Sequence record: NC_135729.1
Reading direction: 5' to 3' (one strand)
From: a phage
DNA length: 64,000 nucleotides
Part shown: positions 4,244 through 63,791 of the stretch, in pieces
Layout: each line of letters opens with the position of its first letter
Numbering within the stretch: position 1 is the first letter of the stretch
The notes under the pieces: model-generated
What the model saw: only the letters and a program-made list of their open reading frames with translations
Database searches by the model: none
Told to the model about the DNA's origin: nothing
Made by a program: the position numbers and the translations under genes

Positions 4244-4260
4244 TTTTCAGATCTCCTTAT

Positions 4261-4290: not shown

Positions 4291-4305
4291 TATGTTAACT
4301 AGGTG

Positions 4306-6537: not shown

Positions 6538-6581
6538 TATGGAATCTCCGATTTTATTTGAACAACATAGAAGGAGACACT

Positions 6582-6610
6582 ATTTTAGCATCCCCTTCTG
6601 TAAATTACAA
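6582..6610 (-). promoter_or_regulatory. sigma70-like promoter
   Basis: minus strand TTGTAA - 17 nt - TAAAAT in the 83-nt gap upstream of 6172-6537. Confidence 0.35.
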
Positions 6611-6620
6611 TAGGTATTTG

Positions 6621-6866: not shown

Positions 6867-6883
6867 CTTAAGGTCTCCTGATA

Positions 6884-47149: not shown

Positions 47150-48640
47150 TTAAATAGTTTGTTGGAAAGTTATATTACTTTCGTCGAGGTCAAACACCTC
47201 GGTCATGTTCGCAACAATATCGTTTGTAGTGTAAGCTTCATCAGAAGCTCCTACTGGTTTAACTTGAATTACCAGTCTATTAAATCTGCCTATTGACACA
47301 GCAGCAGATGCAGCACCGACCAATTGGATATTGTACAACGTATCTGCAACATCCAGTCCGTTAACAACCTGTAAAAGAGCCTCTACAATGGCATCTTTTT
47401 CGGTTGTGGAAAGCGCAGCACCGGAATAGGTAATTCTTACATCTAGGCGGTAGGTATTCGCCTTGGAGTAATAAATTCTTTCAGTTTGACCGTCAGATGT
47501 AGTGACATCGTAGAAAATATTACCATAAGTCCTGTTCGTACAGGCTATAGTTTGGTAAAGTGCTTGGCAAATGTCCTCCGTTGCACCACCAAACACAACC
47601 ACTTGGAACTTGTAAGGAGGTATACCTTTAGCATCAGTTTTATCAGTGTTGTTGGAGAACACTCTCACTTTCTCAACACCTTTCACCTCGCTTACAGCGC
47701 TAAGGATTGCAGGACGGGTAGCCTTCGATGTTAACTGTTTTGTGCTGGAAGCTCTTAAGCGATACTCGGAATCTTTCTCAACATCCCTGCCCTCGTTGAA
47801 TCTTTCTCGGTTGGTAAGCTTGATAAATCCGCTGGGAGTAGGTGACATTGTTGTCACGGTCTCTGCCTCTCTTGACAGCTCACCAGCCTCGTTAGCTATA
47901 ACATCTAGGGTGATAGTTCTTTCCCCTACAATCGGGGATACTCTGAAATCTACCCTACTATTAAGTCCAACTTGATCAAGATTCGAATTGTACCCTATCC
48001 ACAACGTTCCTGTCAACATATCGATCTGAATCAAATCGTCGTTCAACAGGGTTGTATTATCGACAATGAACTGCTTAATCTCTCCGTAAAAGCTTGGCAG
48101 ATCAGAAGAGTCCAGAGACTTATCTGTTAAAACCAGACTTTTTGTTTTGATACTTCCATCTGTCTGGTTGGTGATTTGAAAGTTGTATTTACCAATCCTT
48201 AGGTCTGGAGCATTTATTCTGTGGGCAATAAGATTCCCTGCCACCTGCACATCATTGCTAAGAACAAAGTTGCCACTATCCAGCGTATAAGTTTTGGAAT
48301 CATAAATCATATTGTACGGCACAGTTGTGTTGATTGTCAACTGGCAGGTACCTGATGATTTAGAACGGCCTCTTCGGTAAATACCCTGTCTTCCAAGAAG
48401 CTCATCCAGGTAAATACCTTCTGCCCCATACAGCGTCTGTGATGCGTATACAGATGCTGCCATAAGAATAAGTTGATACTCTCGCTCGTTGAAGATAGTG
48501 GTCAGCTTATCTGCAACGGAGTTACTCTGTACGTTGAAGTTTTCGCCAAAAGCACGGATCAGGCTTTGCTTAGTTTCAACGATTAGGTCATTTAGGGTTG
48601 GTATAACGAAACCAGCCTCTGTCAATCCATACTTAGCCAC
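47150..48640 (-). CDS. baseplate J-like (wedge) protein
   Basis: N-terminal FVIPTLNDLIVETKQSLIRAFG and YLDELLGRQGIYRRGRSKSSG resemble the Baseplate_J family signature (P.L.ELI ... LD.L..G..R....G). Confidence 0.45.
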   Translation of the reverse strand: MAKYGLTEAGFVIPTLNDLIVETKQSLIRAFGENFNVQSNSVADKLTTIFNEREYQLILMAASVYASQTLYGAEGIYLDELLGRQGIYRRGRSKSSGTCQLTINTTVPYNMIYDSKTYTLDSGNFVLSNDVQVAGNLIAHRINAPDLRIGKYNFQITNQTDGSIKTKSLVLTDKSLDSSDLPSFYGEIKQFIVDNTTLLNDDLIQIDMLTGTLWIGYNSNLDQVGLNSRVDFRVSPIVGERTITLDVIANEAGELSREAETVTTMSPTPSGFIKLTNRERFNEGRDVEKDSEYRLRASSTKQLTSKATRPAILSAVSEVKGVEKVRVFSNNTDKTDAKGIPPYKFQVVVFGGATEDICQALYQTIACTNRTYGNIFYDVTTSDGQTERIYYSKANTYRLDVRITYSGAALSTTEKDAIVEALLQVVNGLDVADTLYNIQLVGAASAAVSIGRFNRLVIQVKPVGASDEAYTTNDIVANMTEVFDLDESNITFQQTI

Positions 48641-48745: not shown

Positions 48746-51700
48746 TTAGTCGTGAGACTCGTTCCAAGGTCCCTGGAAGCTTGAGTTAGAACGACTAACG
48801 ATCACAGTGGGACAGGAGATTGTGACACCTGTCACGTTCGACGTTGACCACGGTGTGTAAATCTCGATAACAATGTCTATAGTTTGTTCACCCAGACCTG
48901 TTATCCCTACCGCACACATACCGTTGTTGTCGTTAAAATACTTCTTGCCAGCAAGGATCTGATGACCAGCTATCCATGCATTCAGTTGGGAGCCGGCAAG
49001 AGTACCATTCAGTTTAAAGAAGAATGTTACGTTCTTACCCTGACCTGAAACGTTATCTACGTATCTCCACCTCCAACGGCAAACCCTTTGCCGGGAGTTA
49101 TATACTGGAGCACAATCTCCGTAAGTCCTGTGTGCAACAATTGCACCTTCGAACTGGTTAGCGCGGATAACAGAAGCTTCTACACGACCACGGAAGGTAC
49201 CTCCGGTTGCATCTATGGTGCCTCTAAAGCTGCCATTATTGGCATAAACATCTCCACGGAAGGTACCACTAGTGGCGTTAACTGCCCCTGTGAAGTTACC
49301 AGAACTGGCGTTGATGTTGCCTTTCACCCACACATCCATAAATTGGGCGTGCCCGTTCTTATTAATATACCAACCGTATTTATGGTACCCGTTGCCATCG
49401 TAGTTGTTTGACGAAATTTCTTGTGCGATCTTGGCAGAGGAGATCGTGCCATTCTCTATAAAAGCGTCTTTCAAGAACGCTTGGTTGTTCTTGATTGCGA
49501 AAGCAAGGGTTGCTGTTCCATTTCCTGGGTTGTATACCGCAAAATTGTTTGCACTAACCATGAAGTAGGATTGAACTTGGCCCCCAGACCCTTCCATCCC
49601 CAGCTGGATACCTGCAACATATTTATTCCCTGCGGAGTCTACCTGTATTTTTGTGCCCCATTGAGCATTTACTTTACCCTCTAAGTCGGTTACAGCCTTA
49701 GATGTTGTAGCTACTGCAGCCCTGATCTCAGACACATCCCCAACATCATCAATGATCTCCTGCTTAGCAACAGCAAGTTCTTGACGAATAGCTGACGCTG
49801 TGCCGTTGATAAGGTCCACAGCGGCTTTGTTGGTATCGGAAATTGTAGCATCCAGCGCTGTTTTTGTGGAGGTCAGTTTTCCATCCAAAGCATCAATCGC
49901 TTGCTTGTTGGTAGAAATCTCCCCACGTGCAGAAGTTATCTGCTCTGACAGTGCAGATGTTTTCTGATTCAGCAGGTCAGTGGTGGCCTTGTTGGTATTG
50001 GCAATCAAGGTGTTGAGGTCAGTTTTTGCGGTAGTTATCTTTCCGTCAAGGGTGGTATAGTTTTTAGATACCGTCGCGTTTGTCTGACTAATCTTTTGAT
50101 CCAGAGTTTCAGATGTCCTGTTCAAAAGATCCACAGTGGCTTGGTTGGTGCTCAAGATGCTTGCGTCAAGTTCTGTTCTCTGAGTATTGATCTTACCATC
50201 TAGAGTTTTATCTCCGGCTAAATACCCGCTCTCAACTCCCTCTATCTGCTCTACCAGTTCACCTTTGGCGGCAACCAATTTCTCATCTAAAGCCTCTGTC
50301 TTTTTGTTCAGAAGATCAGTAGTTGCTTTATTGGTTGTCTCAATCAGAGATGCCAATCTTCCACTTTCAGTGTTCAGATCGTTGGTGAACTTGTTCTGTG
50401 CAGCAACAAGTTTCCTATCCAGCGCTGTGATATTGCCATTGACATCCTCAAACTTCTGAGTTGTCTCTGTAACTACCGCACCTATTCTGTCTCCAAGTTG
50501 CTGGAATGCCTCATCTACCCTACCATCCATGTATTTATTAAGCTCTGTGACACGATTTTCAACCTCTTCAATAGAGGAATCCAAAGTGCTCATCAACTCT
50601 TTATAAGTTTCTGTCTTTTTGAATTCAGCATCTATCTGAGGCATCAAATCCTCGATAGAGGTGTAGCAGCGTGCAGCGCATTCTACAAACTGAGAGCTAC
50701 CAAAAGCGTTTGTGGTTCGAATATACCAATAATAAACCTTATCGTTCTGCAGGCCTTCAGATGTCCAAGTTGAACCAACACCCATACGGGTGGCTTTTGA
50801 AGTAACGGTTGCATCACTGGTATCTGGCAATCTTGTCATCCCAGATGTCCAAAAGTCATATTGGGTGCTTACACTGGCCAAGTCTCTGCTGTGCGGGATC
50901 AGGGTAATAGCAAAGTATCCCTGTTTAACTTCTACAGAAACCGGAGCCTCAGGTGCCTGAATGTTAAACTCACAGTATGCTTCTGGAGATACACCACCTT
51001 TATAAGATGTTGCAACAACAGTGGCTGTGTAGGAACCTTTAGTCAGACCTTCAACACGGACAAACTGCTCAACTGTCTGCGCTGTCCAGACAATCTCTCC
51101 GTTTTTCCTGACCTGCACAATGTTTTGAGCATAAGTCCCAACGTTGTCCCAAGCCAAAACACCGTGAGTTACTTCTCCAGCTTGGAGAACGGAATATCTG
51201 AAGTTTTGCGGTTGAGCTACACCAGATGGAGATATCGGAATATCTACATCGCCAGAATCCGGAAGTTGCCCTGTGGCATCATTCCACTCTTTAGCATCTT
51301 GACGAAGTTTTACCTTGACACCACCCTTTTTGGTAAACTCCCATTCAAGAACTCTCATTTCTTGGCCCACTATACCAATACTTGGGAGGTCCATTGTAAC
51401 GTAACGACCAGGTTTAAATTTGAAACCTCGCATATTGCAGGTGACTTCAATAATCCTGCCAGCTCTGGCACGTCTTAGGAAGATTGCAGAAACACGTTGA
51501 GCTTGATAAGGACTGGTAACAAAGCGATAGTCTATATCGATTATCTTTCTTTCTCCATCCTTCTCTATCCACTCTGGGACAAACACTGATGGAAAATCTG
51601 TTTCAGAATACCCTTTGGTCGGACTAGTGAATCTGCCAGTTATTGTGTTGGATCTTTTGTCAAATGAGGCTTCCGGATAGATCTTGACCTCACCACAGAC

Positions 51701-52585
51701 ACAATCCTCACTCAGTGTCATTGTTGCCGGGCCATAGTATGCACCAACCAACAAACCATACTTACCAGCTACATAACTAAGATCTGCACCGCAAGCTTTC
51801 AGCATTTCTGCCATAATACTTGCTGGGGCCTCATCCATGTCAAACTCACCGTTAATGGTGTAACGGCGCTCACTGGTTCCGTCTGCGTTTTTTACCGCCT
51901 CGTCGCATATGTTGGCAGCCTCCTTGAAGGACTCCCAGTTGATGGTTTCGTCAGGACATTTAAGGTACGTTCTTAAATAGTCTAGGATCACCAAGGCAGC
52001 GTTATTGGTGTACACCTCTTTACTGATACGAGGATCATAGCATTTTTTACCAATCTTGACGAGTGTAACGTTTGGCAACCCAAAAGGAAACTTGTTAGGG
52101 TCAAACCTGAAGCTGGCACGTAGCCAACTGATCCCTCTACCTATCATGTCAGGTGACCATGATGGGCAGTGTGTACCCATGAAAGGATCAGATGTTTTTC
52201 TGTCGTTATGTAGCTCCCACGATACCAGATCTCCATACGAGGAAATAGGATTACCGTCGATAAGTATATCTTCTATACCTTCCAGAGGGTGATTGGCAAG
52301 AACAATAGCACAATGGAGGGTTCTGTCGCTATCCTGCTCCAAAAACGCAAGCAATCCAGATGTGCGTGTCTTCCCATACACTACAGAGCAAGGTGCAGCA
52401 GAAGATCTGAGAAGATTTTGTCTATCTTGCTGACTTCTGTAAGATTTGTTGCCCTCAAAAATCTTATCCAAAGTTCTGGTGGTCACAGTGTTCAGGCTGT
52501 CAGCCAGAGCTGCCTTGGATGCGTTCCAGTCATAACTTGAAGATCTTGCAGAAGCAACGATGTTATCAATCATTGCAATTGGCAT
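48746..52585 (-). CDS. host-specificity / central tail fibre protein with lambda gpJ-like FN3 and distal regions
   Basis: GYFAITLIPHS and YYWYIRTTNAFGSSQFVE vs lambda J GYFQITATPH and YYFYIRSVNTVGKSAFVE; NKYVAGIQLGMEG...FMVSANNFAVYNPGNG vs KHYVAGIGLSMED...FLVAANRIAFIDPANG; central repeat array (TDLLN-containing heptad-like units). Confidence 0.65.
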   Translation of the reverse strand: MPIAMIDNIVASARSSSYDWNASKAALADSLNTVTTRTLDKIFEGNKSYRSQQDRQNLLRSSAAPCSVVYGKTRTSGLLAFLEQDSDRTLHCAIVLANHPLEGIEDILIDGNPISSYGDLVSWELHNDRKTSDPFMGTHCPSWSPDMIGRGISWLRASFRFDPNKFPFGLPNVTLVKIGKKCYDPRISKEVYTNNAALVILDYLRTYLKCPDETINWESFKEAANICDEAVKNADGTSERRYTINGEFDMDEAPASIMAEMLKACGADLSYVAGKYGLLVGAYYGPATMTLSEDCVCGEVKIYPEASFDKRSNTITGRFTSPTKGYSETDFPSVFVPEWIEKDGERKIIDIDYRFVTSPYQAQRVSAIFLRRARAGRIIEVTCNMRGFKFKPGRYVTMDLPSIGIVGQEMRVLEWEFTKKGGVKVKLRQDAKEWNDATGQLPDSGDVDIPISPSGVAQPQNFRYSVLQAGEVTHGVLAWDNVGTYAQNIVQVRKNGEIVWTAQTVEQFVRVEGLTKGSYTATVVATSYKGGVSPEAYCEFNIQAPEAPVSVEVKQGYFAITLIPHSRDLASVSTQYDFWTSGMTRLPDTSDATVTSKATRMGVGSTWTSEGLQNDKVYYWYIRTTNAFGSSQFVECAARCYTSIEDLMPQIDAEFKKTETYKELMSTLDSSIEEVENRVTELNKYMDGRVDEAFQQLGDRIGAVVTETTQKFEDVNGNITALDRKLVAAQNKFTNDLNTESGRLASLIETTNKATTDLLNKKTEALDEKLVAAKGELVEQIEGVESGYLAGDKTLDGKINTQRTELDASILSTNQATVDLLNRTSETLDQKISQTNATVSKNYTTLDGKITTAKTDLNTLIANTNKATTDLLNQKTSALSEQITSARGEISTNKQAIDALDGKLTSTKTALDATISDTNKAAVDLINGTASAIRQELAVAKQEIIDDVGDVSEIRAAVATTSKAVTDLEGKVNAQWGTKIQVDSAGNKYVAGIQLGMEGSGGQVQSYFMVSANNFAVYNPGNGTATLAFAIKNNQAFLKDAFIENGTISSAKIAQEISSNNYDGNGYHKYGWYINKNGHAQFMDVWVKGNINASSGNFTGAVNATSGTFRGDVYANNGSFRGTIDATGGTFRGRVEASVIRANQFEGAIVAHRTYGDCAPVYNSRQRVCRWRWRYVDNVSGQGKNVTFFFKLNGTLAGSQLNAWIAGHQILAGKKYFNDNNGMCAVGITGLGEQTIDIVIEIYTPWSTSNVTGVTISCPTVIVSRSNSSFQGPWNESHD

Positions 52586-53022
52586 TAATACCTCCAGACA
52601 TCAACAACGATAGAATCTTTCATGTCGAACATAAAGACCCCTTTATCACCTTTCGCCCAAATCTGGTTGTTCCAGAACACACCAGCGGTGAGCCCGTTCA
52701 GACCTTCGAAAATAACAATATCGCCACGCTGAACCTGTTTAGGAGTATCCAGTCGAGTCATAAAGAGATCAAAAATAGTAGGCAGGTGTGTAGTTTTGAA
52801 ACGAAGCATGCACCATCTTTTGCTTTCCAACTCTGTTTTATACGTTCCTTCGAAGTTGGAAAGAAAATCTGTTCCGTATTGGGCATCAACACACTTAGCC
52901 GCAAAGGTGCAACAATCGTGGAATCCCCATTCAAAAGGTATGGTGGCCTCTTCGTCAAACACTTTCCACAATCTTTCTTGCCAATCCACTAAACGAGGGT
53001 GTGTGCTCATTAAACCTCCCAA
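52585..53022 (-). CDS. tail assembly protein, NlpC/P60-like (gpK-like) candidate
   Basis: GFHDCCTF (Cys motif) and RGDIVIFEG resemble NlpC/P60 DCS and GDLVYF; no clear catalytic His seen. Confidence 0.3.
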   Translation of the reverse strand: MGGLMSTHPRLVDWQERLWKVFDEEATIPFEWGFHDCCTFAAKCVDAQYGTDFLSNFEGTYKTELESKRWCMLRFKTTHLPTIFDLFMTRLDTPKQVQRGDIVIFEGLNGLTAGVFWNNQIWAKGDKGVFMFDMKDSIVVDVWRY

Positions 53023-53576
53023 ATGATCGGGCGGCTCGCCACCTGATCCACATATTTAAAAAATCTGTCATTATCGTTTCTTGAGCTGTGGCTTTCCTCC
53101 GTGTACCGATAAGGAAAACCTCTTAACCAACTGTTGAAGATGGAAGAGATGGATATTGACAAAGCACTATTCTCACCTGTCTGAATAGCCATATCTGTTA
53201 TAAGGCCGTCAAACAAGCCATTAGTTGTGACAGGTAGACCATTCTCCATAGCGGTAATGTACAACGTGGCACGACAACCAGAATACTCCGTCTTCAGCAG
53301 ATCACCCACATACTTAGGATCAAACCCGTTCAATGTTGCTACCACAGATCCGAAGTTGGTGGCATCTTTCTCAGACACAGCAGTTAATGTTGCTGATCCC
53401 CCTATCCCTATAAAATGTTGCCCCTCAATTACTACAACACCAGTGCCTGAGCACACCCTGACAGTTCCTGTCGGTAGCTCCAGCTTTGCAGCAATTAAGA
53501 TCTCAACACCATCAAGCTCCAGCTTTTCAAGAAATAAATTATCTAATGGCGCTCTGATCATCTTAGAAATCCTCAA
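53010..53576 (-). CDS. tail protein (positional)
   Basis: 188 aa, overlaps neighbours by 13-14 nt in the tail operon. Confidence 0.3.
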   Translation of the reverse strand: MRISKMIRAPLDNLFLEKLELDGVEILIAAKLELPTGTVRVCSGTGVVVIEGQHFIGIGGSATLTAVSEKDATNFGSVVATLNGFDPKYVGDLLKTEYSGCRATLYITAMENGLPVTTNGLFDGLITDMAIQTGENSALSISISSIFNSWLRGFPYRYTEESHSSRNDNDRFFKYVDQVASRPIIWEV

Positions 53577-54153
53577 AGAAGTTGATAACTATATTATCAC
53601 CTTTTTGCATAGCATCGACTTTTTGCTTAATTTTATAAATATCTCTGATATGAAACCTACCCTTCGGGGATTGAGTTATTATCTTCATAGTGTCCCCTGC
53701 GGCAATAGGTTTTCTAAGTCTTGGAGATATGCTTATAACAGCAGACCCAACACCATCGCTACGCACTGGAGCTGTTACCACTTTCAATTCATCATTGACA
53801 GATATTTTATCCCCAGCTCTGGCTATGTCTCTGTTTGGCTCCCACCCAACCGTCTTCAAAAAATCGTCGTTACCAGTAGGCCCAAGGGCGATTGGCTCAT
53901 TAGCTGTAACTGAGTGACCGTAAGTTTTAATAAGAAAGATGTTTCCATCTTTATACACCTGATCAACAAAGCTCTTAAGCTCTAGCAACTGTGACTCGCT
54001 GATATTGGAAACCGTCAAAGTGCCTTTCCAGTTAGGTGTGGCATAGGTTACTTTTTGCGTTTTACCTGTAAACGGACTTTTAAACGTAACAATATCTGCC
54101 AGCAGCTCCAATCTAATATCTGGAAGGTATCTAGGCCTTTCCCATAAAAACAT
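53563..54153 (-). CDS. tail protein (positional)
   Basis: 196 aa, first gene after the promoter at 54185-54213. Confidence 0.3.
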   Translation of the reverse strand: MFLWERPRYLPDIRLELLADIVTFKSPFTGKTQKVTYATPNWKGTLTVSNISESQLLELKSFVDQVYKDGNIFLIKTYGHSVTANEPIALGPTGNDDFLKTVGWEPNRDIARAGDKISVNDELKVVTAPVRSDGVGSAVISISPRLRKPIAAGDTMKIITQSPKGRFHIRDIYKIKQKVDAMQKGDNIVINFFEDF

Positions 54154-54213: not shown

Positions 54214-54245
54214 TACAAACAAAAAGCCCCCGCCGAAGCGAGGGC
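54214..54245 (-). terminator. rho-independent terminator
   Basis: minus-strand GCCCUCGC-UUCG-GCGGGGGC hairpin (one G.U pair) followed by TTTTTGTTTG. Confidence 0.65.
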
Positions 54246-54252: not shown

Positions 54253-57200
54253 TTACTTCAGTTTCTCTTGCAACCCAGTAACAACCTCTGTCAATTTTTT
54301 AACCTGCTCCTCAAGGGCGGTTATTTTATCGTCCTGTTCCCTGCAAACCTGGACAAGCAAGCCTGTTACGGCTGCGTAATCCACGCTGTAGAATCTTTCC
54401 TCTGTTATCAAAGGAGTTCCATCTTGATCAGGGTTTGGGATTTCCTTTCTTTGCACGAAAGAGCTAACTGCTTCCGGCAGCGCTTCAAGCACTTCTTGTG
54501 CTATAACACCTGCATAAGGCATACCGTTCTCTTTAAGAGTGTAAGTATAACCCTTCATCTTCCGGATAGCTTCTAACGCATCAGGAATAACAGCTATGTT
54601 ATCTTTCAGATCTCTGTCAGAACTCTGATTGACAGATGTGCAATTCACAGCGCCGTTTACAGAAAGATATCTTGATTTATCTGGCAAGGTACCGCAATGC
54701 CATACCCAATTTGATTGAGACTCGTCAAGAACCTTAAACTCTAACACGTTTGGACGATCTCCTGTGCTGCCGTTACCCCAATAATACATATGGGCGGCAT
54801 TAGCAGGCATGTTGCCACCGTTATTAGTAACATGACTTCCAGAAATATATACCTTTAACTCTGGGGTTGGTATTTCCCCTTCCGGGGTTGTTCCTCCATA
54901 CCTGAAGCTAACACCATTACCACCTGTTTGGGTCCACGGGCCCCAAGTGAAGACCTGTTTCACCATATTCCCATAACGTGTAAATCTATCGCCATGGTAG
55001 GTAATATATTCTTGAACACACCCATTACCGTTATTGGCGTTATTTTGCAACACAATAAGTGTTCCGGCCTCATTTACGGGATAATGACGATCATATGTTG
55101 CATCATTATTTGCAGGCTGATGGTAAATACCTTCCCACAATCCGTGATAGGTGTTAAGGTCTGAAGAACCAAGACCTTGACCCCTGTGTTGCATAGCCTT
55201 ATTCCAGGGATGGTGATTACCACCTTCTATAGACCTGGTGTATAAGTTACTTTGTCTGCCAGCAATCTGGAAAGCGTAGTTTCCCGAGAATCCTACAGAT
55301 AACCCGCCTACAACCATGGTATCTTGTGGGCCGTTAACATTACCAGCTATTATTTTTGACGGGTTGTTAGGCCCGAACTGGTTGTTCCAGTCTGCACCTG
55401 TGTGGCATACAAAACCACCTGGTGCTGAGAAAGTACCATCTTTGTTGAAGTTGTAGAATCTATGAGCTGTGCCTACAACATCACGAACAATAACTTGACC
55501 AGCCTCTGGAGTAGATCTGAACTCTGCTTGACCTTTAAGGCCAGCACCATTACCGCATTTAGAGGTAAACGTGCCGTTAGTTAGATCCTCTGTTCCATCT
55601 GATGCACACTGGAATCCTGCGTTAGAGAATAGCGCCTTTCTAGGACCACTGTAGCACAAATAGTCAAAACCGTCAGCCCATAGCTCTACTTTAGGCATGT
55701 TCATTTTGCTCATTATCGCATAGCGTTCAGCAGTGCCTATATAGTGCCACTGTGTGCCGCCGCCAGTGTAGAACCCTGAAGTGCCTTTGAAGTCAACAAT
55801 AGGTCTGGTATTGGTATTGTTATCTCCAAGAACAGCTAGATTCAAGTCTGCTGATTGAAGAGGTGCAACGAACTTAACCCCATCCTGATTGTTTGTTACA
55901 GAGCCGACTTGATAATCTTGCTCTCTGGTAAACACTTCGACAACATTTCTACTTGCGTATATGCTGACAGGGAAAGCACGAGCCTCTGCATAGAAAGCAA
56001 CATACTCTTGTTTACCCCTTGTTGGAGCAACCATCCCAAGAAGTGCTTTTTCATTCTTCTGGTAGAAATTTACTACCCCGTAGAAAGAGTCTCCCCTGTC
56101 CGTCCAGCCGCCAGTTCTATAGTGACACTGCAGGGTGGCACAGTTCATAGGGTCATTTCCAGATGAAAACCTGGTGACTATAGTAATATCAGTGCCAGTT
56201 GCTGGAGCATAGTACGGATCTGTTCTAACGATGATTGGGTAGTATTTCCCATCTTCCATCCCTGCGGTTCTTGGCAGTGTTAAGAAGTCTTTTACACCTG
56301 CCGCTATAGGAACTTTGAACAGATTCTGAGCATCTGCTAAAGTTGTAGCTCCAGTGCCACCTGCGGCTTGAGGTAAAGGTTCCCACTTGGCCTTCCGGTT
56401 GTTATAAACACCCCACTCCAAAGTGCCGTTACCGGATTCGTCCATCCCACCATCCCAGATAACCATCTTGGCGGCTTTCTTGGACCCCCAGAAGCCTCTT
56501 TCTGCTCCTGAACTACGGATCCACTCTCCAAGTCCCCAGTTTGTCAGCTGACCAGTAAGATCCCCAACCTGCATATATTTAGGGCAGTCTAATACTCCGT
56601 CTTCGCGGAAACCTAAATATCTGTGAGTTTCAGATCCTTTTGCACCTTTGTGCAGGTGGATTGTCAACCAAGCTTTATTGTCGTTTCTTACCTCAGAGTA
56701 GATCCTATAACCATGCTCAAGGACACCGTCAGCGTTGTATTTGTCCCCGTTAACAATACCTGATGCTGACTTAACATCAGCAGAACTTTGAGACAGGTAA
56801 AGGTGCCCGAAGGTAGGGGAATTTCTAGACCCGAGACCGATGTGCGATCTAAAGGTATCATCGTTACGAGGTCTGACCATCGGCTGCCATGCAGTCCACT
56901 GGTTTGTGTTGGCTTGATAGGTTCTCAAATACCAAACATCTACGTTAGAGAATGGATAGTATTCCTGACGACAACCTGTACCGCCGTTAGCATTGTTCTG
57001 CCAAACAATCAAGTGACCAGCACCAGAACCTGCAGGGTAACCATTTTCCTCAGTTGCATAAGCAGTCATCGGCTGGTAGTATACACCATCCTGATTACCA
57101 GTCAAGTTATTGATATTGAAATTTGGCTCAAGGGCTGCACGTTGCTTATAGAAAGCCCCGATATTGATACGGACTCCAGCGGCATCTCTGGCCCCTGTAC

Positions 57201-58068
57201 CGCCTTGCTCTATAGCAAGAGGTTGCCACGAGGCTGTTTGTTGGTTCCACATACCCCAACGGCCTGTTGCATCAAGCTGCAAGTACCCTGCCGTGTTTAA
57301 ATCATCTCCAGCACGGATAACTGTTCTTGTTGGGTTGTTTGCCTCCAGGCGTTTAAATTCATCACGAAGTGCTATTCTTTTTGTTGTCGCTACACCGTTG
57401 GTTACTGAGATGGTATACATAGCTCCGGAGGTAGCTCCACGGAAAATACCATCAACAGTTGTAGTATCACGACGAGATACCACACCGTTCAGAAATTTTT
57501 CACCAGCTGCTACAGAGGGATAGTTGGTGGTTCTTCCCTCTTCAATAACTGCAGGGCCAACAAAGTTATCAAGGTGGATAACATCACTTACAGTGTGCAC
57601 TGTACCAAAATCTACACGCTGTGCAAGGGCTTTAGCATCGTTAGCTGTCTGAACAGTAACATCCATTACATCCTGGACAGACTGCCCTTCGGCTGTCATG
57701 ATCATAGATGCGCCAATGGTAGATTCCAACTCCTCCCTTAAGGACGGGTCAGTATATACCATCCATGCAGCGTCAGTAATCCCACCATCAGCGTACGGTG
57801 AAGATAGTGCAGGAACAGTGTGTGGAAATTCGCCTTTCCAACGCAGGTAGAGGTCTTCCTCTTCGAAGTAGGCAAAATCCATTGGGCCGTTTAACTTACC
57901 ACCTTCCTTAAAGGAGATTACATGAGAAACAGTCCCATCCACATGGACAACATCGCCAATTTTTACACGACGGGTCAGGTCTGGTTGTTGAACAACCAGG
58001 TAATCATCCTCTGTCACTGCGGTAGTGGCAGGAAGAGATTCAATTCTGACAACTTTAATATCAGCCAT
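54253..58068 (-). CDS. tail fibre/tailspike with C-terminal intramolecular chaperone (Peptidase_S74) domain
   Basis: C-terminus SSDRDLKDNIAVIPDALEAIRKMKGYTYTLKENGMPYAGVIAQEVLEALPEAV (S74 auto-processing signature); N-terminal anchor module shared with 60703-61371. Confidence 0.7.
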   Translation of the reverse strand: MADIKVVRIESLPATTAVTEDDYLVVQQPDLTRRVKIGDVVHVDGTVSHVISFKEGGKLNGPMDFAYFEEEDLYLRWKGEFPHTVPALSSPYADGGITDAAWMVYTDPSLREELESTIGASMIMTAEGQSVQDVMDVTVQTANDAKALAQRVDFGTVHTVSDVIHLDNFVGPAVIEEGRTTNYPSVAAGEKFLNGVVSRRDTTTVDGIFRGATSGAMYTISVTNGVATTKRIALRDEFKRLEANNPTRTVIRAGDDLNTAGYLQLDATGRWGMWNQQTASWQPLAIEQGGTGARDAAGVRINIGAFYKQRAALEPNFNINNLTGNQDGVYYQPMTAYATEENGYPAGSGAGHLIVWQNNANGGTGCRQEYYPFSNVDVWYLRTYQANTNQWTAWQPMVRPRNDDTFRSHIGLGSRNSPTFGHLYLSQSSADVKSASGIVNGDKYNADGVLEHGYRIYSEVRNDNKAWLTIHLHKGAKGSETHRYLGFREDGVLDCPKYMQVGDLTGQLTNWGLGEWIRSSGAERGFWGSKKAAKMVIWDGGMDESGNGTLEWGVYNNRKAKWEPLPQAAGGTGATTLADAQNLFKVPIAAGVKDFLTLPRTAGMEDGKYYPIIVRTDPYYAPATGTDITIVTRFSSGNDPMNCATLQCHYRTGGWTDRGDSFYGVVNFYQKNEKALLGMVAPTRGKQEYVAFYAEARAFPVSIYASRNVVEVFTREQDYQVGSVTNNQDGVKFVAPLQSADLNLAVLGDNNTNTRPIVDFKGTSGFYTGGGTQWHYIGTAERYAIMSKMNMPKVELWADGFDYLCYSGPRKALFSNAGFQCASDGTEDLTNGTFTSKCGNGAGLKGQAEFRSTPEAGQVIVRDVVGTAHRFYNFNKDGTFSAPGGFVCHTGADWNNQFGPNNPSKIIAGNVNGPQDTMVVGGLSVGFSGNYAFQIAGRQSNLYTRSIEGGNHHPWNKAMQHRGQGLGSSDLNTYHGLWEGIYHQPANNDATYDRHYPVNEAGTLIVLQNNANNGNGCVQEYITYHGDRFTRYGNMVKQVFTWGPWTQTGGNGVSFRYGGTTPEGEIPTPELKVYISGSHVTNNGGNMPANAAHMYYWGNGSTGDRPNVLEFKVLDESQSNWVWHCGTLPDKSRYLSVNGAVNCTSVNQSSDRDLKDNIAVIPDALEAIRKMKGYTYTLKENGMPYAGVIAQEVLEALPEAVSSFVQRKEIPNPDQDGTPLITEERFYSVDYAAVTGLLVQVCREQDDKITALEEQVKKLTEVVTGLQEKLK

Positions 58069-58083
58069 TCTTTCTCCTGAAAG

Positions 58084-58100
58084 GGGGCAAACAGCCCCCT
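58084..58100 (-). terminator. intergenic hairpin (possible attenuator)
   Basis: GGGGGC-AAACA-GCCCCC; weak T-tract on the minus strand, so terminator function uncertain. Confidence 0.3.
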
Positions 58101-58103
58101 ATG

Positions 58104-60701
58104 TTAAAGGTACAATCCACGGTATTGAGCATAAAGGCCCAGACCGCGAAGGATTTCGCCAGAGTGATAGCCCACCGGATCAGAAACTGCCCAGCAGCCG
58201 TTTAAAACATTATCCCCATTGATGAAGTGGTGCTTTTGCAGTAGCTTCACGCAGGCTTCTACAACAATATCTATTTGAGGTATTGTCTCTGAATACCCGC
58301 ACAGACCTAGCCAGCAGCAACCTGCAAGCCATTCACCTACCACCCACATCCTGTCTCCTCTGTCCTGATAAGAATATCCCCCAGAGGTGTTAAAGTCTGT
58401 AGGTAGATTTCCTGAATGAGATGACTGGAATCTGTTGAGGAACCATGCCCATTTCTGGCAGAACAGGAATAATCTTTCATCAACAGGTTCTTTATGTTTC
58501 TTGAGCTCATAGATTGTGCGGCACGCAGCAACAAAAGATCTTGACTGGAGCTTAGAGTTATCTACCATCTCCCACCAACCAGTCAGCCCTTCATTACCTC
58601 TCTGCCATACATAACGCGAGGCAACTGGACCCTCTGTCTTAAATGTATTATTATACCAGACTTGAGCGTCATACAGAAAGCCTATTGTATTTGACAATCT
58701 ATGGCGATCTATGTTTTCTGCACCCATGCAGTAGACTGCTGGGTATTGCATGCCTGGGTAGGGCCAATTTGGCCTTTCCTCTAAGAGATAGTTTTCCTTA
58801 TCTATCACCTTTCCGGCAGGGAACACACCTGGTGTGTGCCTGTATGCACCTTGCTTGTAGTTTCTGACATAGCAATCACCAACCTTAGCGGTTGATTCTG
58901 TCTTGCTTGCCATCCATACGCTAAACCAGATTAGATAAGCATCCCTATCTGCAATATAGAATTGCGGCAGTGTGTTGACGCAATATAGATCAAACAAGCC
59001 ATTACCTATCTGCCTGTCGCTTAGGCTGAAATCTACAGAGGTGAGTCCCTTAGGATTAGCAAAGAAAGGTTTAATCTCTTCTTCAGTGTGATGAGGTTGT
59101 GTCGGATCTAGTTTGAAATCTCCTAGAGTAAGAGTTTCTGTTACCCATTGTCCATTAGTGGCATATAGATCAGCATACCATAACCACCTGTCTTTGTCAA
59201 GAAATTTGACCCTTACCATCTCATCATCTGATCGATAAGTTACTGAGTTTAAAGAAATCTCTCTTCCAAAATTGAAAGTTACTTTGCCTCTTGCTATATT
59301 ACAACGGGTGAAGTTGTCAGAGTGGTTGTAAATGTCAGTATCGTACTGCATGCTAACACTGGCACCACCGCTCACGGCAATGTTTTCCTCTTTAGGTAAG
59401 AGGTACGGATTACCGTCTTTACCAACTACCTCTACGAAATCAGTAACCTTGGCAACTATTTCTGTTACCTCTGCCCCTCCAAAAGGAACCCCTATCCTGT
59501 ACTGTTTTTTGTTATTGTTGCCATCATTAAGGATGAAATGTGGCTGGAACAGAACCCCCTCTCCTCCGAAATTCATAACAATTTCAGCATCTCTGCCTAT
59601 TTTGTATGTAGTCCCTTTTTGGATTATTTCGCAAGGCTGGCGTGCGTTCATTCTAAAATTGATATACCCGTCACTGTCCCTGCTCATGACAGGAACTGTT
59701 CCTGCAACAAGACAAGTACCATCTGTAAACGGTGCCTTAATCAACGTGGTCTTTCTAAACAGTTTGTCGTATGCGTTTATATCACTGAAATTAAGCAACT
59801 TGTTGTAAGACTGTTCAAACGCGGTGTAATACTTTTCCTCACCTGTCAAGGTGTAGAGTTGATAACAAGCGTCACACCACATTTCTTCCCCGTCCAACTC
59901 TGGGGCCTGATTATCTGCAACCACGTTTATAGGATTTACAATTACAGGGGATCCAGCAGGTATCACCGATCCACCCTGCTCTTGAGGTAATCTTACACAA
60001 TAGGTCACCTTGTGGCTTCCTGTAACACCCTTATCTTGTAATTGGATTGTGCCGAACTCTATAGACGTATGCCCACTGTCGGCTATGCTTCCGTTAGCCC
60101 AATAGCGGTTACCATCCCATGCTATGTACCACTCAACCCACCAACTTAATCCGGATGTTGTCCAATCTGGGTTAGCATCTGTGCCACCGTAAACATCAGA
60201 GTCTACAGTGTTTCTTCCTAACACACCGTTATACGCTTGGAATGCCTTGTCCAGGTATTCCCCCCATGTCGGAGATCCAGCTGGGATTTTTCCTCTACCG
60301 TTGGTAAAAGACACCACCACATCTTTAAACCCACCGTGTGATGGAACCCCATCTGTGGATAGAGGGTAGTGGGACAATCTTTGCATTTTACTTTCTACGG
60401 CATATGCACCCAGAAGATGACTATTGTAAGATTCCCAAGCATCTTTTGCCCTATCCAGATAGAAATCGCTTTTCGATGCCCTGTATGCTTCAATGTATCC
60501 CAGAATCAACACAGCTTGGGACTCATGCATTGCCCAATCGTTATTTATCTTATTACCTGCCCACCCTGCAGCTATAAGACCATCAGGGTTTACTAGCTTA
60601 TTTTGTGTAGGTGTGTTGGTAATACCTGTGTTGTTATCGAGGCACTTCCTGTGCCCCTCAATCATCTGAAATACGTTATCAATGTTGTGTTGAATACGCA
60701 T
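58104..60701 (-). CDS. putative tailspike/tail fibre protein with enzyme-like domain
   Basis: 865 aa; Trp/Tyr-rich segments reminiscent of glycosidase-like folds; no catalytic motif identified. Confidence 0.35.
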   Translation of the reverse strand: MRIQHNIDNVFQMIEGHRKCLDNNTGITNTPTQNKLVNPDGLIAAGWAGNKINNDWAMHESQAVLILGYIEAYRASKSDFYLDRAKDAWESYNSHLLGAYAVESKMQRLSHYPLSTDGVPSHGGFKDVVVSFTNGRGKIPAGSPTWGEYLDKAFQAYNGVLGRNTVDSDVYGGTDANPDWTTSGLSWWVEWYIAWDGNRYWANGSIADSGHTSIEFGTIQLQDKGVTGSHKVTYCVRLPQEQGGSVIPAGSPVIVNPINVVADNQAPELDGEEMWCDACYQLYTLTGEEKYYTAFEQSYNKLLNFSDINAYDKLFRKTTLIKAPFTDGTCLVAGTVPVMSRDSDGYINFRMNARQPCEIIQKGTTYKIGRDAEIVMNFGGEGVLFQPHFILNDGNNNKKQYRIGVPFGGAEVTEIVAKVTDFVEVVGKDGNPYLLPKEENIAVSGGASVSMQYDTDIYNHSDNFTRCNIARGKVTFNFGREISLNSVTYRSDDEMVRVKFLDKDRWLWYADLYATNGQWVTETLTLGDFKLDPTQPHHTEEEIKPFFANPKGLTSVDFSLSDRQIGNGLFDLYCVNTLPQFYIADRDAYLIWFSVWMASKTESTAKVGDCYVRNYKQGAYRHTPGVFPAGKVIDKENYLLEERPNWPYPGMQYPAVYCMGAENIDRHRLSNTIGFLYDAQVWYNNTFKTEGPVASRYVWQRGNEGLTGWWEMVDNSKLQSRSFVAACRTIYELKKHKEPVDERLFLFCQKWAWFLNRFQSSHSGNLPTDFNTSGGYSYQDRGDRMWVVGEWLAGCCWLGLCGYSETIPQIDIVVEACVKLLQKHHFINGDNVLNGCWAVSDPVGYHSGEILRGLGLYAQYRGLYL

Positions 60702-60702
60702 C

Positions 60703-61371
60703 TTAGATAGCTCCTGCGATAATCAGTGCCCCGTACCAAGTTAACCCGTTGTCGTAGGTTTCCAACTTGAAAATGTCTGTTGCACCAGCTGTAAATGTTA
60801 GGATAGGATCTCTTCCGTAGGACCATTTAACATTACCAGGCCAATAGACTTTGTTGCCGCCAGAGGTCTGAGTAATGCATACAGTTATAGTTCTCGCCAC
60901 CCCTTCAAGACCTTCTGTTTGATTTTCAAAAGAGATTGTGGTATTTGAAGTTAGTCGAACCTTAAAGGTATCCGCAACTTCAAGATCCATATCAAGCTGA
61001 CCACCGATAGATCCGTAATCAACTATTCTGCCAGAAGAAGTTGCAGCAAGCTCACCAAAAACAGACCAGGCATTTGCAGACACACCTCCAGCACCCTCTA
61101 CAGTGGAGTCTGGGAGGATTATTTTAGGATAATCCCCGTTCCACGTGTAGTAGCGCTTAGTTTCTGGGTCATAAGCAAAGTCCTTCTTGCTCTTAAGATA
61201 ACCACCCTCTGTGAAATAGACTATCTTGGTAATGCTAAGATCGTTGACAACATCGTCAATCTTAGCCTTTCTTGTCCCATCAGTCTGGTTGACAACCAAG
61301 AAGTCATCACTCAGGACTGTTTCTGCATCTTCAAGATCTGGAATTGGTATTGTAGGATAAGCTACAGCCAT
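60703..61371 (-). CDS. short fibre-adaptor-like protein carrying the shared fibre N-terminal module
   Basis: LSDDFLVVNQTDGTRKAKIDDVV...FTEGGYLKSKKDFAY aligns with TEDDYLVVQQPDLTRRVKIGDVV...FKEGGKLNGPMDFAY of 54253-58068. Confidence 0.4.
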   Translation of the reverse strand: MAVAYPTIPIPDLEDAETVLSDDFLVVNQTDGTRKAKIDDVVNDLSITKIVYFTEGGYLKSKKDFAYDPETKRYYTWNGDYPKIILPDSTVEGAGGVSANAWSVFGELAATSSGRIVDYGSIGGQLDMDLEVADTFKVRLTSNTTISFENQTEGLEGVARTITVCITQTSGGNKVYWPGNVKWSYGRDPILTFTAGATDIFKLETYDNGLTWYGALIIAGAI

Positions 61372-61380: not shown

Positions 61381-62097
61381 TTAGTTAACATCAATAGCAC
61401 GACCAGACTGGTTGGCAATAGCCTCATCATTGGAGGTAGCAATAACACCAGAGTATTCGCGCTCATCTGGAGCAAGCGTCCAGGTATTGCGGTTAATGGT
61501 TTGTTCTGCCTCAGTCATCAGCAGATCTTTATCCTGAGTCAACAGAGAGCCTACAGGGATCGGGTTTTCCATCTCAGGACCAGCATACTGGTTCCACCAT
61601 GTGGCATCTCCGGTTCTAGGTAATCTGAAGTTGATCAGATAGTACAGTTTATTAGCCCACTTAATCCAACCCTCATCATCACAGAGAGAGGTTGTCCCAG
61701 AATCAGGCTGTGGGTAGGTGAACTGATCAAGACCTACGAAAGCCAGCCTTACAATCTCGTTCTCTTTGGTAACAACCTCAAAGAACGCTTGGTATGTTCT
61801 CGATCTTCGATCCATGGTAGACTGGAAGTTTATGATGTTTAACACATCCGGCTCTTGTCTTGCCACTTCCATGATCTTGTTATCAAGAACAGTCTTCATG
61901 ACCTTCTTACTGAGAAAGTCCATATAAGGGAAGCCAAACAACTCGTCGAAGTACCAGCTCCCCTTCCACGTATTAAACCTCATCCACAAGCGCTGGCGCA
62001 GACTTACTTGGTTTGAATCTATCAACTCAAGACCTTTGTCTATCGCCAAATCGCCTGTCTGCGGGTCCATCAATATATCACTATAAAGCGTAGCCAT
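61381..62097 (-). CDS. structural protein (baseplate/tail, positional)
   Basis: 238-aa ORF in the tail operon. Confidence 0.3.
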   Translation of the reverse strand: MATLYSDILMDPQTGDLAIDKGLELIDSNQVSLRQRLWMRFNTWKGSWYFDELFGFPYMDFLSKKVMKTVLDNKIMEVARQEPDVLNIINFQSTMDRRSRTYQAFFEVVTKENEIVRLAFVGLDQFTYPQPDSGTTSLCDDEGWIKWANKLYYLINFRLPRTGDATWWNQYAGPEMENPIPVGSLLTQDKDLLMTEAEQTINRNTWTLAPDEREYSGVIATSNDEAIANQSGRAIDVN

Positions 62098-62109: not shown

Positions 62110-62787
62110 TTAGTGCGGTCCACTTGTCTCGCCATCAGGGCAAGAGTGGGTATGACCTTTATATTCTGCATAGAATGAATCCAAATCCACGCCAGCAGCA
62201 GTTATAATTCTACCAGATGGGTCTATTGTAGCACCATTCATTCTGATATTCCCATCCACAGCAGCTCGCAAATTGGCAGCCCCGTTAGTGAAAGAAAACT
62301 CCCCGCTGCTGTCGCACCGTAATGTCCCACCAGGTGTTTGAAGCTCAAAATCGCCAGAAGGTGTCAGTTTAAAATAAACCCTATCATTCCATAACTCTAC
62401 GTTATCAGGATCGATCTGTAAAGCGTTTGAGTCTGAATGGACAGAGGTGATTGCCCACCCTGGAAACAGGCCGTGAGTTTGTTGATCGTCGTTATTGTTT
62501 TCATTTCTCTCTGAAAACTGTAATCCTACAACATCTCCGGCCTTAATAGGAAGTGTTAACCTTGCCTTTCCGCTGTTTGCAGACATCACCTGAATTGGAA
62601 CGTCATAGATAAGAGGGTATCTCTCCACATCTCCGTCATCAAACGTAGTTTCAGCTATTGGCTGCACGGCTGCAGAAGGTATACTGTAGTCAACACTGAC
62701 AACTCTGGCCCTGATACTGGTGTGGTAGTCCCTCATTATTTTTTCTATAAAGGATCTTACAGCAGCATCTTTCCTATTTATTGCCAT
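62110..62787 (-). CDS. putative baseplate central spike (gpV/gp5-like)
   Basis: N-terminal OB-like region (LTLPIKAGDVVGLQF) and C-terminal GHTHSCPDGETSGPH resembling HxH metal-binding spike tips. Confidence 0.35.
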   Translation of the reverse strand: MAINRKDAAVRSFIEKIMRDYHTSIRARVVSVDYSIPSAAVQPIAETTFDDGDVERYPLIYDVPIQVMSANSGKARLTLPIKAGDVVGLQFSERNENNNDDQQTHGLFPGWAITSVHSDSNALQIDPDNVELWNDRVYFKLTPSGDFELQTPGGTLRCDSSGEFSFTNGAANLRAAVDGNIRMNGATIDPSGRIITAAGVDLDSFYAEYKGHTHSCPDGETSGPH

Positions 62788-63791
62788 TATACCTCCTCAG
62801 TTTTGTCAACAACTCCACCCACTGTTTCCCCAAGGCCAAGCTCTGTAGTGTAATCACCTCCTTCTATGGTGCCCTTATGATGCACCGTGATCACCTTATA
62901 GAATCCTGTATATTGCTTGCTTTTAAGATAAATAGTGGACTCTGGGAGGATAGCTCCGTTAAGGCATGTGGTTACAGTAAGGCCAACATCCTCTCTCGGG
63001 TTTTTCTTTTTCTTTTTAGATGTCGAACCACCTTTGGCAGCAGCTTTAGCTTTTCGTTTTTTAGCAGGTTCTGGGTTTTTAGGGGTAGGAGATCCGTGCA
63101 TCCCAGACTCTGCACTTATTTCAAACACAGAGTCTTTGAACCTTTTTCCAACCTTGGTCCAATACAAAGCCCCATCCTGAACGCTAAATGTTGAGTTGGT
63201 CAGCCTTGCAAACCTGCGGAGGTTCTCTGCAGTGTTTCCAGAGAAAGCCATAGAGTATTGCAAAGTCTGGTTTCCAAAACCAACAACCCTACCTTTTGGC
63301 AAGTTCATATCCTTCAGCAGGTCATTAAGCACAGAGTTCAGAGGTGTGCCTTTCTGATAAGATCTTGTGCTTTGGCACTTAATGATATTCTCAGTGCCAT
63401 CTCCAAAGATGAACTTAGTTTTTCTGGTCGGACCTTCCCATCTGTCTTCAACAAACTCCACAGTTCCGGAGAATATCAACTGGTTCTCATTATCATAGCC
63501 AGCTTCAAACATAACTGCAAGGGCATCAGCCTGATGCATATCCAGATAGTTAACTGTATCGTCAGACAGGTTGTAAACTGTCACATAACCTTTGTTTGGC
63601 TCTTTGGTATTGTCCTTTTGTATATCAAACTCTATATTGGCAGCACCAGTGTCCGAGCTAACTTCATAAACTCCGGAATCACTCTCCCCTTTCTTTTCAA
63701 CAGATTTTGGGATATTGGTTTTTGATTTACCGCCATGTTCTACAGGACGACCAAACAATAATCGCCATGTTCTACGTCTGTACTCTGCCAT
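62787..63791 (-). CDS. structural protein (baseplate hub/tail, positional)
   Basis: 334 aa; lysine-rich low-complexity stretch KKRKAKAAAKGGSTSKKKKKNP; start overlaps the stop of the upstream partial ORF (TAATG). Confidence 0.3.
   Translation of the reverse strand: MAEYRRRTWRLLFGRPVEHGGKSKTNIPKSVEKKGESDSGVYEVSSDTGAANIEFDIQKDNTKEPNKGYVTVYNLSDDTVNYLDMHQADALAVMFEAGYDNENQLIFSGTVEFVEDRWEGPTRKTKFIFGDGTENIIKCQSTRSYQKGTPLNSVLNDLLKDMNLPKGRVVGFGNQTLQYSMAFSGNTAENLRRFARLTNSTFSVQDGALYWTKVGKRFKDSVFEISAESGMHGSPTPKNPEPAKKRKAKAAAKGGSTSKKKKKNPREDVGLTVTTCLNGAILPESTIYLKSKQYTGFYKVITVHHKGTIEGGDYTTELGLGETVGGVVDKTEEV

Follow-up and report, generated by a model that had tools for sequence, protein, structure and literature searches.

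Within a 64,000-nucleotide (nt) stretch of phage DNA (sequence record NC_135729.1; the whole stretch is called the window here), three adjacent genes at positions 54253-61371 encode a protein of 222 amino acids (aa), a predicted enzyme of 865 aa, and a 1271-aa lateral fiber that ends in a Peptidase_S74 chaperone domain. We propose that these genes probably specify a single accessory host-recognition device, in which the 222-aa protein would be an adaptor holding the enzyme, and in which the fiber and the adaptor-enzyme complex would coexist on the virion. The source phage is an rV5-type Escherichia coli myovirus; more than 100 rV5-type Escherichia phages (Vequintavirus) match the 7.1-kb region at 97-99% identity, and all genes of the region are encoded on the minus strand. 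The rV5 counterparts of the three proteins, gp43 (222 aa), gp42 (enzyme) and gp41 (fiber), were all detected in rV5 virions by mass spectrometry (PMC3606486).

A two-part N-terminal module shared by the fiber and the 222-aa protein

An earlier note on this DNA, made from the sequence alone, had claimed that the fiber and the 222-aa protein begin with the same N-terminal anchor module of about 100 aa. The homology stands, and the alignment that the note had called for is significant: residues 8-105 of the 222-aa protein and 7-105 of the fiber are 38% identical (E = 3e-18 in a single comparison), and a hidden Markov model (HMM) built from the two N-termini and searched against 455 six-frame open reading frames (ORFs) of the window detects these two proteins only (E about 1e-64 each; next best E = 1.4). 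Both proteins also match Tail_spike_N (PF18668) above the curated Pfam cut-off of 25 bits, with 39.1 bits in the fiber (residues 46-103) and 41.0 bits in the 222-aa protein (residues 51-105), and this part of the module shares the fold of the solved Tail_spike_N members CBA120 TSP1/3/4 and G7C gp63.1.

What does not stand is the idea of one single domain. When we compared the N-termini of all fiber-like proteins of the window, Enterobacter phage EC152, phAPEC8 and phi92, the shared region of about 105 residues resolved into two parts with differing distributions: residues 1-45, which we call N45, and Tail_spike_N (residues ~46-105). N45, with the consensus MAD..PTV.ISDLP.A..V...D.LV.DQ.D.TRK, is common to the small protein and a fiber in all four lineages examined (the rV5-type pair, the EC152 223/712-aa pair, phi92 gp140/gp143 and phAPEC8 gp098/gp095). 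The rV5 and Seunavirus pairs have Tail_spike_N, as does, separately, phi92 gp151. In solved tailspikes, the attachment element proper comes first and Tail_spike_N follows it, at about residues 70-160; in phage Sf11 viewed in situ, anchor helices spanning residues 4-59 form a bundle with one from the distal tail protein, ahead of Tail_spike_N (PMC12724387). Because the two parts differ in distribution, and because the Sf11 anchor precedes Tail_spike_N, N45 is by analogy likely the contact element and Tail_spike_N a generic shoulder. An N45 profile matches no PDB sequence at E<=10 and no Pfam family, and the putative anchor thus lacks a structural precedent; the AlphaFold2 (AF2) monomer model of the 222-aa protein predicts a beta-hairpin and a short helix here, at a low predicted local distance difference test score (pLDDT) of 45-61.

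The search of other phages that the note had also suggested recovers the module widely. With tblastn, the 115-residue module matches 1,186 phage records. Of these, 255 (Vequintavirus and relatives) align with 80% or more of its length; the others have Tail_spike_N as their sole match, within sipho-, podo- and myovirus tailspikes. Among the matches listed, rV5-type and Cronobacter records carry the module at two places per genome. Within rV5-type phages, fiber alleles of 617, 827, 988 and 1481 aa (P0098, P0102, P0104 and P0122) keep the first ~330 residues constant, whereas large internal changes delete, swap or extend the stretches in the middle and toward the distal end, and the fiber N-terminus thus bears the signature of an attachment end. 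This constancy, together with the presence of the N45 and Tail_spike_N module at the head of many different tailspike-sized proteins, supports the view that the shared N-terminus behaves as an attachment module.

The 222-aa protein as a putative adaptor for the enzyme

The earlier note offered two identities for the short ORF, a truncated paralog of the fiber or an adaptor. Its resemblance to the fiber is indeed limited to the N-terminal ~105 residues, as would be expected of a truncated paralog, or of a decaying fiber-gene duplicate without a function of its own. However, the remainder of the protein (residues ~112-222) is unrelated to the fiber and is confidently predicted as a beta-sandwich (pLDDT >90, against 79.8 for the AF2 model overall). 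This C-terminal domain of about 110 residues (C-domain) contains the motif Q-G-x-G-x-N-K-V-x-W-P...W-Y-G and is widespread: at E<=1e-3, an exhaustive search found 3,413 cluster representatives that contain it, as a rule at the very C-terminal end of the protein. The C-domain profile matches no solved structure among PDB sequences, and a Foldseek search matched Tail_spike_N only. The full protein is an orthologue of phi92 gp140 (39% identity over residues 109-203), matches the families phrog_7760 (E=8e-120) and phrog_9017 (E=2e-25), is 98-100% conserved in more than 100 genomes, and has orthologues at 40-46% in Seunavirus and others. Since it is in addition a virion component and is classed as essential on E. 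coli K-12 (below), conservation, proteomic and genetic data together refute a truncated paralog, to which we give essentially no chance.

The adaptor possibility is favored by the gene that follows. In the window, 1 nt separates the stop of the small gene from the start of the enzyme gene, with an AGGAG within the end of the small gene. The 865-aa protein matches phrog_2871 over its full length (E=0, 1182 bits), is 35% identical over its full length to Justusliebigvirus and Phapecoctavirus proteins, and is homologous to phi92 gp141 (35-42% identity). It has no match in Pfam or NCBIfam; by structure it shows the six-hairpin (alpha/alpha)6-barrel fold of glycoside hydrolases (GH105/GH88/GH8/GH76-like), and the Atoyac15 homologue gives a GH76 match that falls below threshold. 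A structure prediction from a shallow 7-sequence alignment reached a pLDDT of 70 only. We therefore describe the protein as a predicted glycosidase-like enzyme. Across myoviruses and podoviruses, conservation of the family begins at the very first residues, indicating that the enzyme lacks a lineage-specific anchor, which in turn argues that the small protein is an adaptor rather than a truncated fiber.

The pairing of these two genes extends far beyond rV5-type phages. In the phage collection, the 222-aa protein occurs in 535 records and the 865-aa protein in 524, with almost superimposable taxon distributions. Scanning IMG/VR with an alignment of the 865-aa family yielded 76 loci with enough upstream sequence, in 66 of which a C-domain ORF ends 0-62 nt before the enzyme gene. 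In the reverse direction, all six C-domain matches that we followed, drawn from unrelated groups (Asteriusvirus, Seoulvirus, Kolesnikvirus, an N4-like schitovirus, Ackermannviridae and a 54-kb Rosemountvirus-like phage), have a member of the 865-aa family after them, as confirmed with HMMs; this reverse association comprises six hand-picked records and the near-identical taxon counts. Stop and start codons are spaced by -20 to +13 nt in all 59 distinct junctions, with the nearest in-frame start taken in each case, which favors small gaps. Among the small partners, at least 18 unrelated classes of N-terminal part can be told apart, and the recognized anchors among these are Phage_T7_tail (in T7-like phages), the P2-type Phage_tail_fib and, weakly, the lambda-type phage_tail_N. 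In nine of the ten exceptions, the protein is ~1100 aa long, with a Tail_P2_I baseplate domain (E=3.6e-53) and the enzyme joined in cis, and its gene directly follows a Baseplate_J gene; in the tenth, the enzyme carries another N-terminal extension. Given the gene pairing and coupling, the swapping of anchors, the anchorless enzyme and the fused exceptions, the most economical explanation is that the enzyme is brought to the virion by an anchor that comes from the small protein in trans or from a fusion in cis. A mirror-tree comparison of C-domain and enzyme was uninformative as to co-divergence (r=0.85 overall, 0.26 for distant pairs).

These genomic patterns also bear on whether the 222-aa protein could instead be an independent short fiber, with a C-domain that binds a host surface molecule and an enzyme gene that is adjacent through synteny without interaction. 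PHROG families label the protein a tail fiber protein, the phi92 authors count gp140 among fiber-like candidates, and, as described below, the requirement for the 222-aa gene on K-12 exceeds that for the enzyme gene. Yet the C-domain is kept across phages of very different hosts, unlike receptor-binding tips, and adjacency and coupling to the enzyme gene survive at least 18 changes of N-terminus, across morphotypes. An independent fiber would moreover leave the enzyme, itself a virion protein, without a means of attachment, and the enzyme gains a fused baseplate domain where the small protein is absent. We consider an independent short fiber quite improbable, and the sequence evidence favors the 222-aa protein as an adaptor for the 865-aa enzyme as the best reading.

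Transposon insertions reveal one host-specific unit

Transposon mutagenesis of the related phage Bas54 by HIDEN-SEQ (preprint, 10.1101/2025.11.20.689424) provides genetic data on all three genes. The four relevant Bas54 proteins are 94.6-100% identical to window proteins, with 100% identity for the 222-aa protein (Bas54_0025) and 94.6% for the fiber (Bas54_0027). In the reference library, the 222-aa gene is classed as Essential (7/47 TA sites), and the enzyme and fiber genes are classed as Intermediate (94/189 and 154/238; 10.1101/2025.11.20.689424). After liquid competition on K-12, insertions are present at 0 of 47 sites in the 222-aa gene and survive at 6 of 238 in the fiber gene and, by our own count, 29 of 189 in the enzyme gene. 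Our host contrast is K-12 versus the clinical isolate CFE311 only: within Supplementary file 9 (Extended Data Table 8), the sheet named 'resampling_K-12_vs_CFE303' (Data S6) repeats the command line and values given for CFE311 (Data S7) and thus duplicates the CFE311 analysis. From K-12 to CFE311, mean reads per site in the three genes, taken in gene order, rise from 0.0 to 17.8, 3.1 to 52.1 and 0.2 to 16.6, corresponding to log2 fold changes of +4.2, +3.7 and +3.9, all significant. The 222-aa gene tolerates insertions in each of its halves on CFE311 (16 sites), and the fiber gene does so along its whole length, the region encoding the N-terminal module included. Thus, the 222-aa protein is not a core assembly component, and the three Bas54 genes form one host-specific recognition unit rather than mutual alternatives.

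This result runs counter to the pattern that the earlier note had read into the shared module, namely one baseplate site used by interchangeable partners. If the fiber and the short protein competed for the same site, alternative or mixed particles would result, as might be suggested by the same N-terminal module on both proteins and by a population that holds allelic fibers with the same head and different bodies. However, the rV5-type records listed encode both proteins, at two places per record; both proteins are present in virions; and disrupting either gene causes a host-specific defect in the same direction, not compensation. The interchange that is seen involves fiber alleles in different genomes, not these two genes. 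We find competition for one site very improbable, and conclude from the co-encoding, joint presence in virions and common defect that the fiber and the 222-aa protein work together.

One observation weighs against a simple adaptor: on K-12, losing the 222-aa gene is worse than losing the enzyme gene, so the 222-aa protein must do more than carry the enzyme. Its extra role may be support of the fiber or action on its own. The former would make the protein a hub, a base on the baseplate that holds the enzyme through its C-domain and also the S74 fiber, with the N-terminal modules of the two proteins packing together instead of each occupying a baseplate socket of its own. The severity of the 222-aa defect on K-12, at least equal to that of fiber loss and greater than that of enzyme loss, fits such a hub, as does the co-occurrence of the small protein and an N45-bearing fiber in four of four lineages examined; in the cryo-electron microscopy (cryo-EM) of phi92, fiber II joins the base of fiber I rather than the wedge. 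Nevertheless, a contact between the two N-terminal modules has no support, N45 and Tail_spike_N together also head many tailspike-sized proteins, and in other virion types the small partner has an ordinary anchor (T7-type or P2-type) that is shared by no second fiber. We judge the hub unlikely, and retain as probable the device in which the 222-aa protein holds the enzyme and coexists with the fiber.

Two further patterns in the insertion data were considered. Within the fiber gene, insertions in the N-terminal part appeared less tolerated on K-12, but this positional effect was marginal (0/83 versus 6/155 sites) and is gone on CFE311. In the gp25-like sheath initiator gene, insertions at codon 171 and codons 204-238 are tolerated on CFE311 with none on K-12, like those in the three genes. 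Codons 204-238 encode a 35-residue C-terminal extension, NTWTLAPDEREYSGVIATSNDEAIANQSGRAIDVN, that is absent from the EC152, phAPEC8 and phi92 homologues. By analogy with phiTE (below), the tail is a possible socket element; a polar effect on the next gene would explain the phenotype equally well. As a universal socket for N45 the tail was rejected, since EC152 and phi92 lack it.

Predicted maturation of the S74 fiber

The long fiber ends in a Peptidase_S74 domain, as the earlier note had recognized (residues 1150-1201; 52.1 bits against a Pfam cut-off of 22), with the Ser-Lys dyad motif at the start of the domain. Ser1150 and Lys1155, in the sequence S-D-R-D-L-K (residues 1150-1155; motif S-D-x-x-x-K), align with Ser757 and Lys762 of the phi92 endosialidase gp143, whose annotated mature peptide ends at residue 756 and whose released C-terminal domain starts at Ser757. 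Cleavage at Ser1150 would yield a 1149-aa mature fiber and a released chaperone of 122 aa. Low-resolution cryo-EM of two Vequintaviruses places RBPseg class TC12, to which this fiber belongs, at the proximal baseplate, and shows no density for the peptidase domain of the S74-bearing TC12 fiber RBP_11 (PMC12143355). Compared with known Peptidase_S74 systems (K1F endoNF, T5 pb1, S16 gp37), the window fiber is an ordinary member in which we found no difference. The fiber also contains an internal repeat, in which residues 318-370 resemble residues ~970-1022, with a knob-like motif G.LIV.QNNAN.G.GC.QEY.

A model for the device and its relation to known systems

We propose that the device sits on the baseplate periphery of the rV5-type myovirus, where N45 would act as the lineage-specific anchor that fixes a trimer to the virion and Tail_spike_N as a generic shoulder domain. 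This two-part attachment cassette would be used twice, on the 1271-aa fiber and on the 222-aa protein. The fiber would fold with the help of its C-terminal S74 chaperone, which would then be cut off at Ser1150, and the small beta-sandwich of the 222-aa protein would hold the (alpha/alpha)6 enzyme encoded 1 nt downstream. Both assemblies would be carried on the same particle, needed together on K-12 and not on CFE311.

The closest parallel is phi92 (Stephanstirmvirinae), in which gp140-gp141-gp142-gp143 follow the sheath initiator in the same gene order as in the window. Like the 222-aa protein, gp140 combines N45 with the C-domain; gp141 is homologous to the 865-aa protein; and gp143 is an S74-matured fiber that, like the window fiber, starts with N45. 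Unlike the window pair, gp140 and gp143 lack Tail_spike_N, gp140 is shorter (157 versus 222 aa), and the distal enzyme of gp143 is an endosialidase. A 2026 cryo-EM study of phi92 leaves fiber II and the proximal arm of fiber I without gene assignment and does not mention gp141 (PMC13450770); the phi92 papers that we consulted place neither gp140 nor gp141 in density.

Small lineage-anchored proteins likewise carry anchorless enzymes in the K1E/K1-5/SP6 (gp37 adaptor) and Klebsiella KP32-type (anchor-branch receptor-binding proteins) systems, and the Aeromonas Atoyac15 cassette uses a T7 fiber N-terminal domain as its adaptor anchor, as in those systems. The K1E/K1-5/SP6 and KP32-type adaptors use T4 gp10-like domains and carry trimeric beta-helix spikes. 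In the window, the cargo is a predicted (alpha/alpha)6-barrel enzyme, and the holder domain has no sequence match to a solved structure. In CBA120 (TSP1-4) and G7C (gp63.1/gp66), the segments upstream of Tail_spike_N are unrelated to N45, which has no PDB match, and these phages, unlike the window phage, bear multi-spike trees on Ackermannviridae or N4-like virions. Among solved structures, the gp13 tailspike of the Shigella siphophage Sf11 (9OCC; PMC12724387) matches the sequence of the module's second half best, with E=2.8e-5 and 1.3e-10. In Sf11 in situ, the segment before Tail_spike_N is the anchor (PMC12724387), the same layout as N45 followed by Tail_spike_N; the Sf11 anchor consists of three bundled helices that a single helix from the distal tail protein (Dit) joins, and N45, a predicted beta-hairpin and short helix, is not homologous to it. 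In phiTE (Certrevirus), a member of the same subfamily, Vequintavirinae, the N-terminus of a long fiber is held by wedge proteins together with the sheath initiator's C-terminal helix (PMC11972413). The likeness is that truncating the initiator C-tail in Bas54 phenocopies loss of the three genes; the difference is that other N45-bearing lineages lack the rV5 initiator tail, and the Bas54 phenotype may be due to polarity.

Outside these lineages, the adaptor-enzyme pair and its fused counterpart appear in unexpected settings. The clade with the Tail_P2_I fusion (L038, L041-L043, L046, L047 and L049-L051, on IMG/VR contigs of ~13-20 kb) has a P2-like tail cluster, and is possibly a prophage or tailocin with the enzyme as part of a wedge protein. 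In Rosemountvirus-type myoviruses of 52-54 kb, the pair lies between the head-tail connector and sheath genes, outside the baseplate block (L005, Salmonella phage SE13, 4336-7916; L094, ES2-BCU-3, 3578-7155), and the N-terminus of the small protein is an alanine-rich coiled coil; here the appendage may be attached at the neck. In the broadest and most tentative reading, which we think has a low probability, the small C-domain protein and the enzyme would form a portable two-gene plug-in appendage that has spread among essentially all tailed-phage body plans, by swapping the adaptor's N-terminal anchor alone or by fusion to a baseplate protein, and in rV5/phi92-type phages the adaptor would double as a lateral fiber hub, its N45 pairing with that of the S74 fiber. 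If this were true, gp140 and gp141 would be fiber II or the proximal arm in the phi92 cryo-EM.

Gene order and neighboring tail genes

Coordinates of the three genes, their domains and adjacent features are collected below.

Table 1. Features in and around the three-gene region, in window coordinates and in order of transcription.
Feature	Position	Strand	Basis or remark
Baseplate hub gene	62787-63791	-	First in transcription direction
Central spike gene	62110-62787	-	After baseplate hub; N-terminal domain, by position, should be that of phi92 gp138
gp25-like sheath initiator gene	61381-62097	-	After central spike
Sheath-initiator-like C-terminal tail, residues 204-238	61384-61488	-	Insertion phenotype in Bas54
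222-aa protein gene (rV5 gp43 / Bas54_0025 / phi92 gp140 orthologue)	60703-61371	-	ORF; phrog_7760
N45 of 222-aa protein, residues 1-45, lineage-specific putative anchor	61237-61371	-	Alignment across lineages
Tail_spike_N of 222-aa protein, residues ~46-105	61057-61236	-	PF18668
C-terminal beta-sandwich, residues ~112-222, conserved putative partner domain of gp141-type enzyme	60706-61038	-	AF2 model
865-aa enzyme gene (rV5 gp42 / Bas54_0026 / phi92 gp141 family)	58104-60701	-	Predicted (alpha/alpha)6-barrel, glycosidase-like, beta-rich inserts
GC hairpin GGGGGC-TGTTT-GCCCCC in 35-nt enzyme/fiber gene spacer	58083-58099	-	Read from sequence
1271-aa lateral fiber gene (rV5 gp41 / Bas54_0027)	54253-58068	-	phrog_6578 E=0; Pfam matches
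Fiber N-terminal module, residues 1-105, N45 + Tail_spike_N	57754-58068	-	Alignment and Pfam
Predicted auto-cleaved intramolecular chaperone, Ser1150 to residue 1271	54256-54621	-	Peptidase_S74 and motif alignment
Terminator-like hairpin directly after fiber gene stop	54226-54245	-	8-bp stem, 7 G-C pairs, then T run; consensus match only

Together, the two hairpins suggest that the small-protein/enzyme pair and the fiber gene may differ in expression level. Downstream of the terminator-like hairpin lies a siphovirus-type tail-tip block (48746-54153, minus strand), between the S74 fiber and the Baseplate_J genes of this myovirus, followed by wedge genes (47150-48640 and 46452-47138) and further fibers. 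The block encodes a 196-aa distal-tail-protein-like protein, a 188-aa protein, a 145-aa DUF6950 protein and a 1279-aa lambda-J-like protein (Phage_Tail_Tip and Ig_J), and is absent from the corresponding position in phi92, phAPEC8 and EC152. In the Bas54 reference library, bas54_0028, _0030 and _0031 are non-essential and bas54_0029 is Intermediate (28/35; 10.1101/2025.11.20.689424). From K-12 to CFE311, mean reads per site in the block fall from 38-86 to 0-0.6 (log2 fold changes of -5.1 to -6.4); the block is dispensable on K-12 and essential on CFE311.

Several other fibers are essential in Bas54 on K-12: two paralogous short tail fibers (window counterparts at 41269-42315 and 43327-44367), a gp150-like 581-aa fiber (39236-40981), and an N4-gp65-like deacetylase fiber of 690 aa (44380-46452). 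A 1875-aa Ig-domain fiber (33558-39185) is dispensable on K-12 in Bas54. The closest DNA matches to the region (99.2%) are MG065658, MG065661 and MG065682, unannotated 'Campylobacter phage' records with C. jejuni given as host, and there are about 20 other such records; this host label looks doubtful, because all else at 95-99% identity consists of E. coli rV5-type phages.

Implications for rV5- and phi92-type phages

The principles of the modular N-terminal anchor, the adaptor protein and the S74 chaperone are well established from K1E/K1-5/SP6, KP32-type, CBA120, G7C and Sf11 phages. Three aspects of the present system seem undescribed in the searchable literature: N45 as an anchor common to gp140-type and S74-type proteins; the proposed function of gp43/gp140 as an adaptor for gp42/gp141; and the wide distribution of the cassette, with interchangeable anchors and a barrel-type, non-beta-helix cargo. 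Annotations of the rV5 genes date from 2013, and both the BASEL authors (2021) and the 2026 phi92 study (PMC13450770) state that the assignment of genes to lateral fibers is unclear.

Phages of the rV5 and phi92 types are prized for their very broad host range. For these phages, our analysis offers a testable assignment, with gp43/gp140 as the putative adaptor for gp42/gp141 and with an anchor in common with the S74 fiber, that would account for the single host-specific phenotype of three adjacent genes in the transposon data. The Bas54 essentiality classes in turn provide a first functional ranking of the fiber sets. The analysis also brings into view a large family of virion-borne predicted barrel glycosidases, and defines a segment of about 45 residues for grafting when rV5-/phi92-type phages are to be re-targeted. 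With at least 18 interchangeable anchors, the cassette would give phage engineers a natural collection of plug-compatible modules for attachment.

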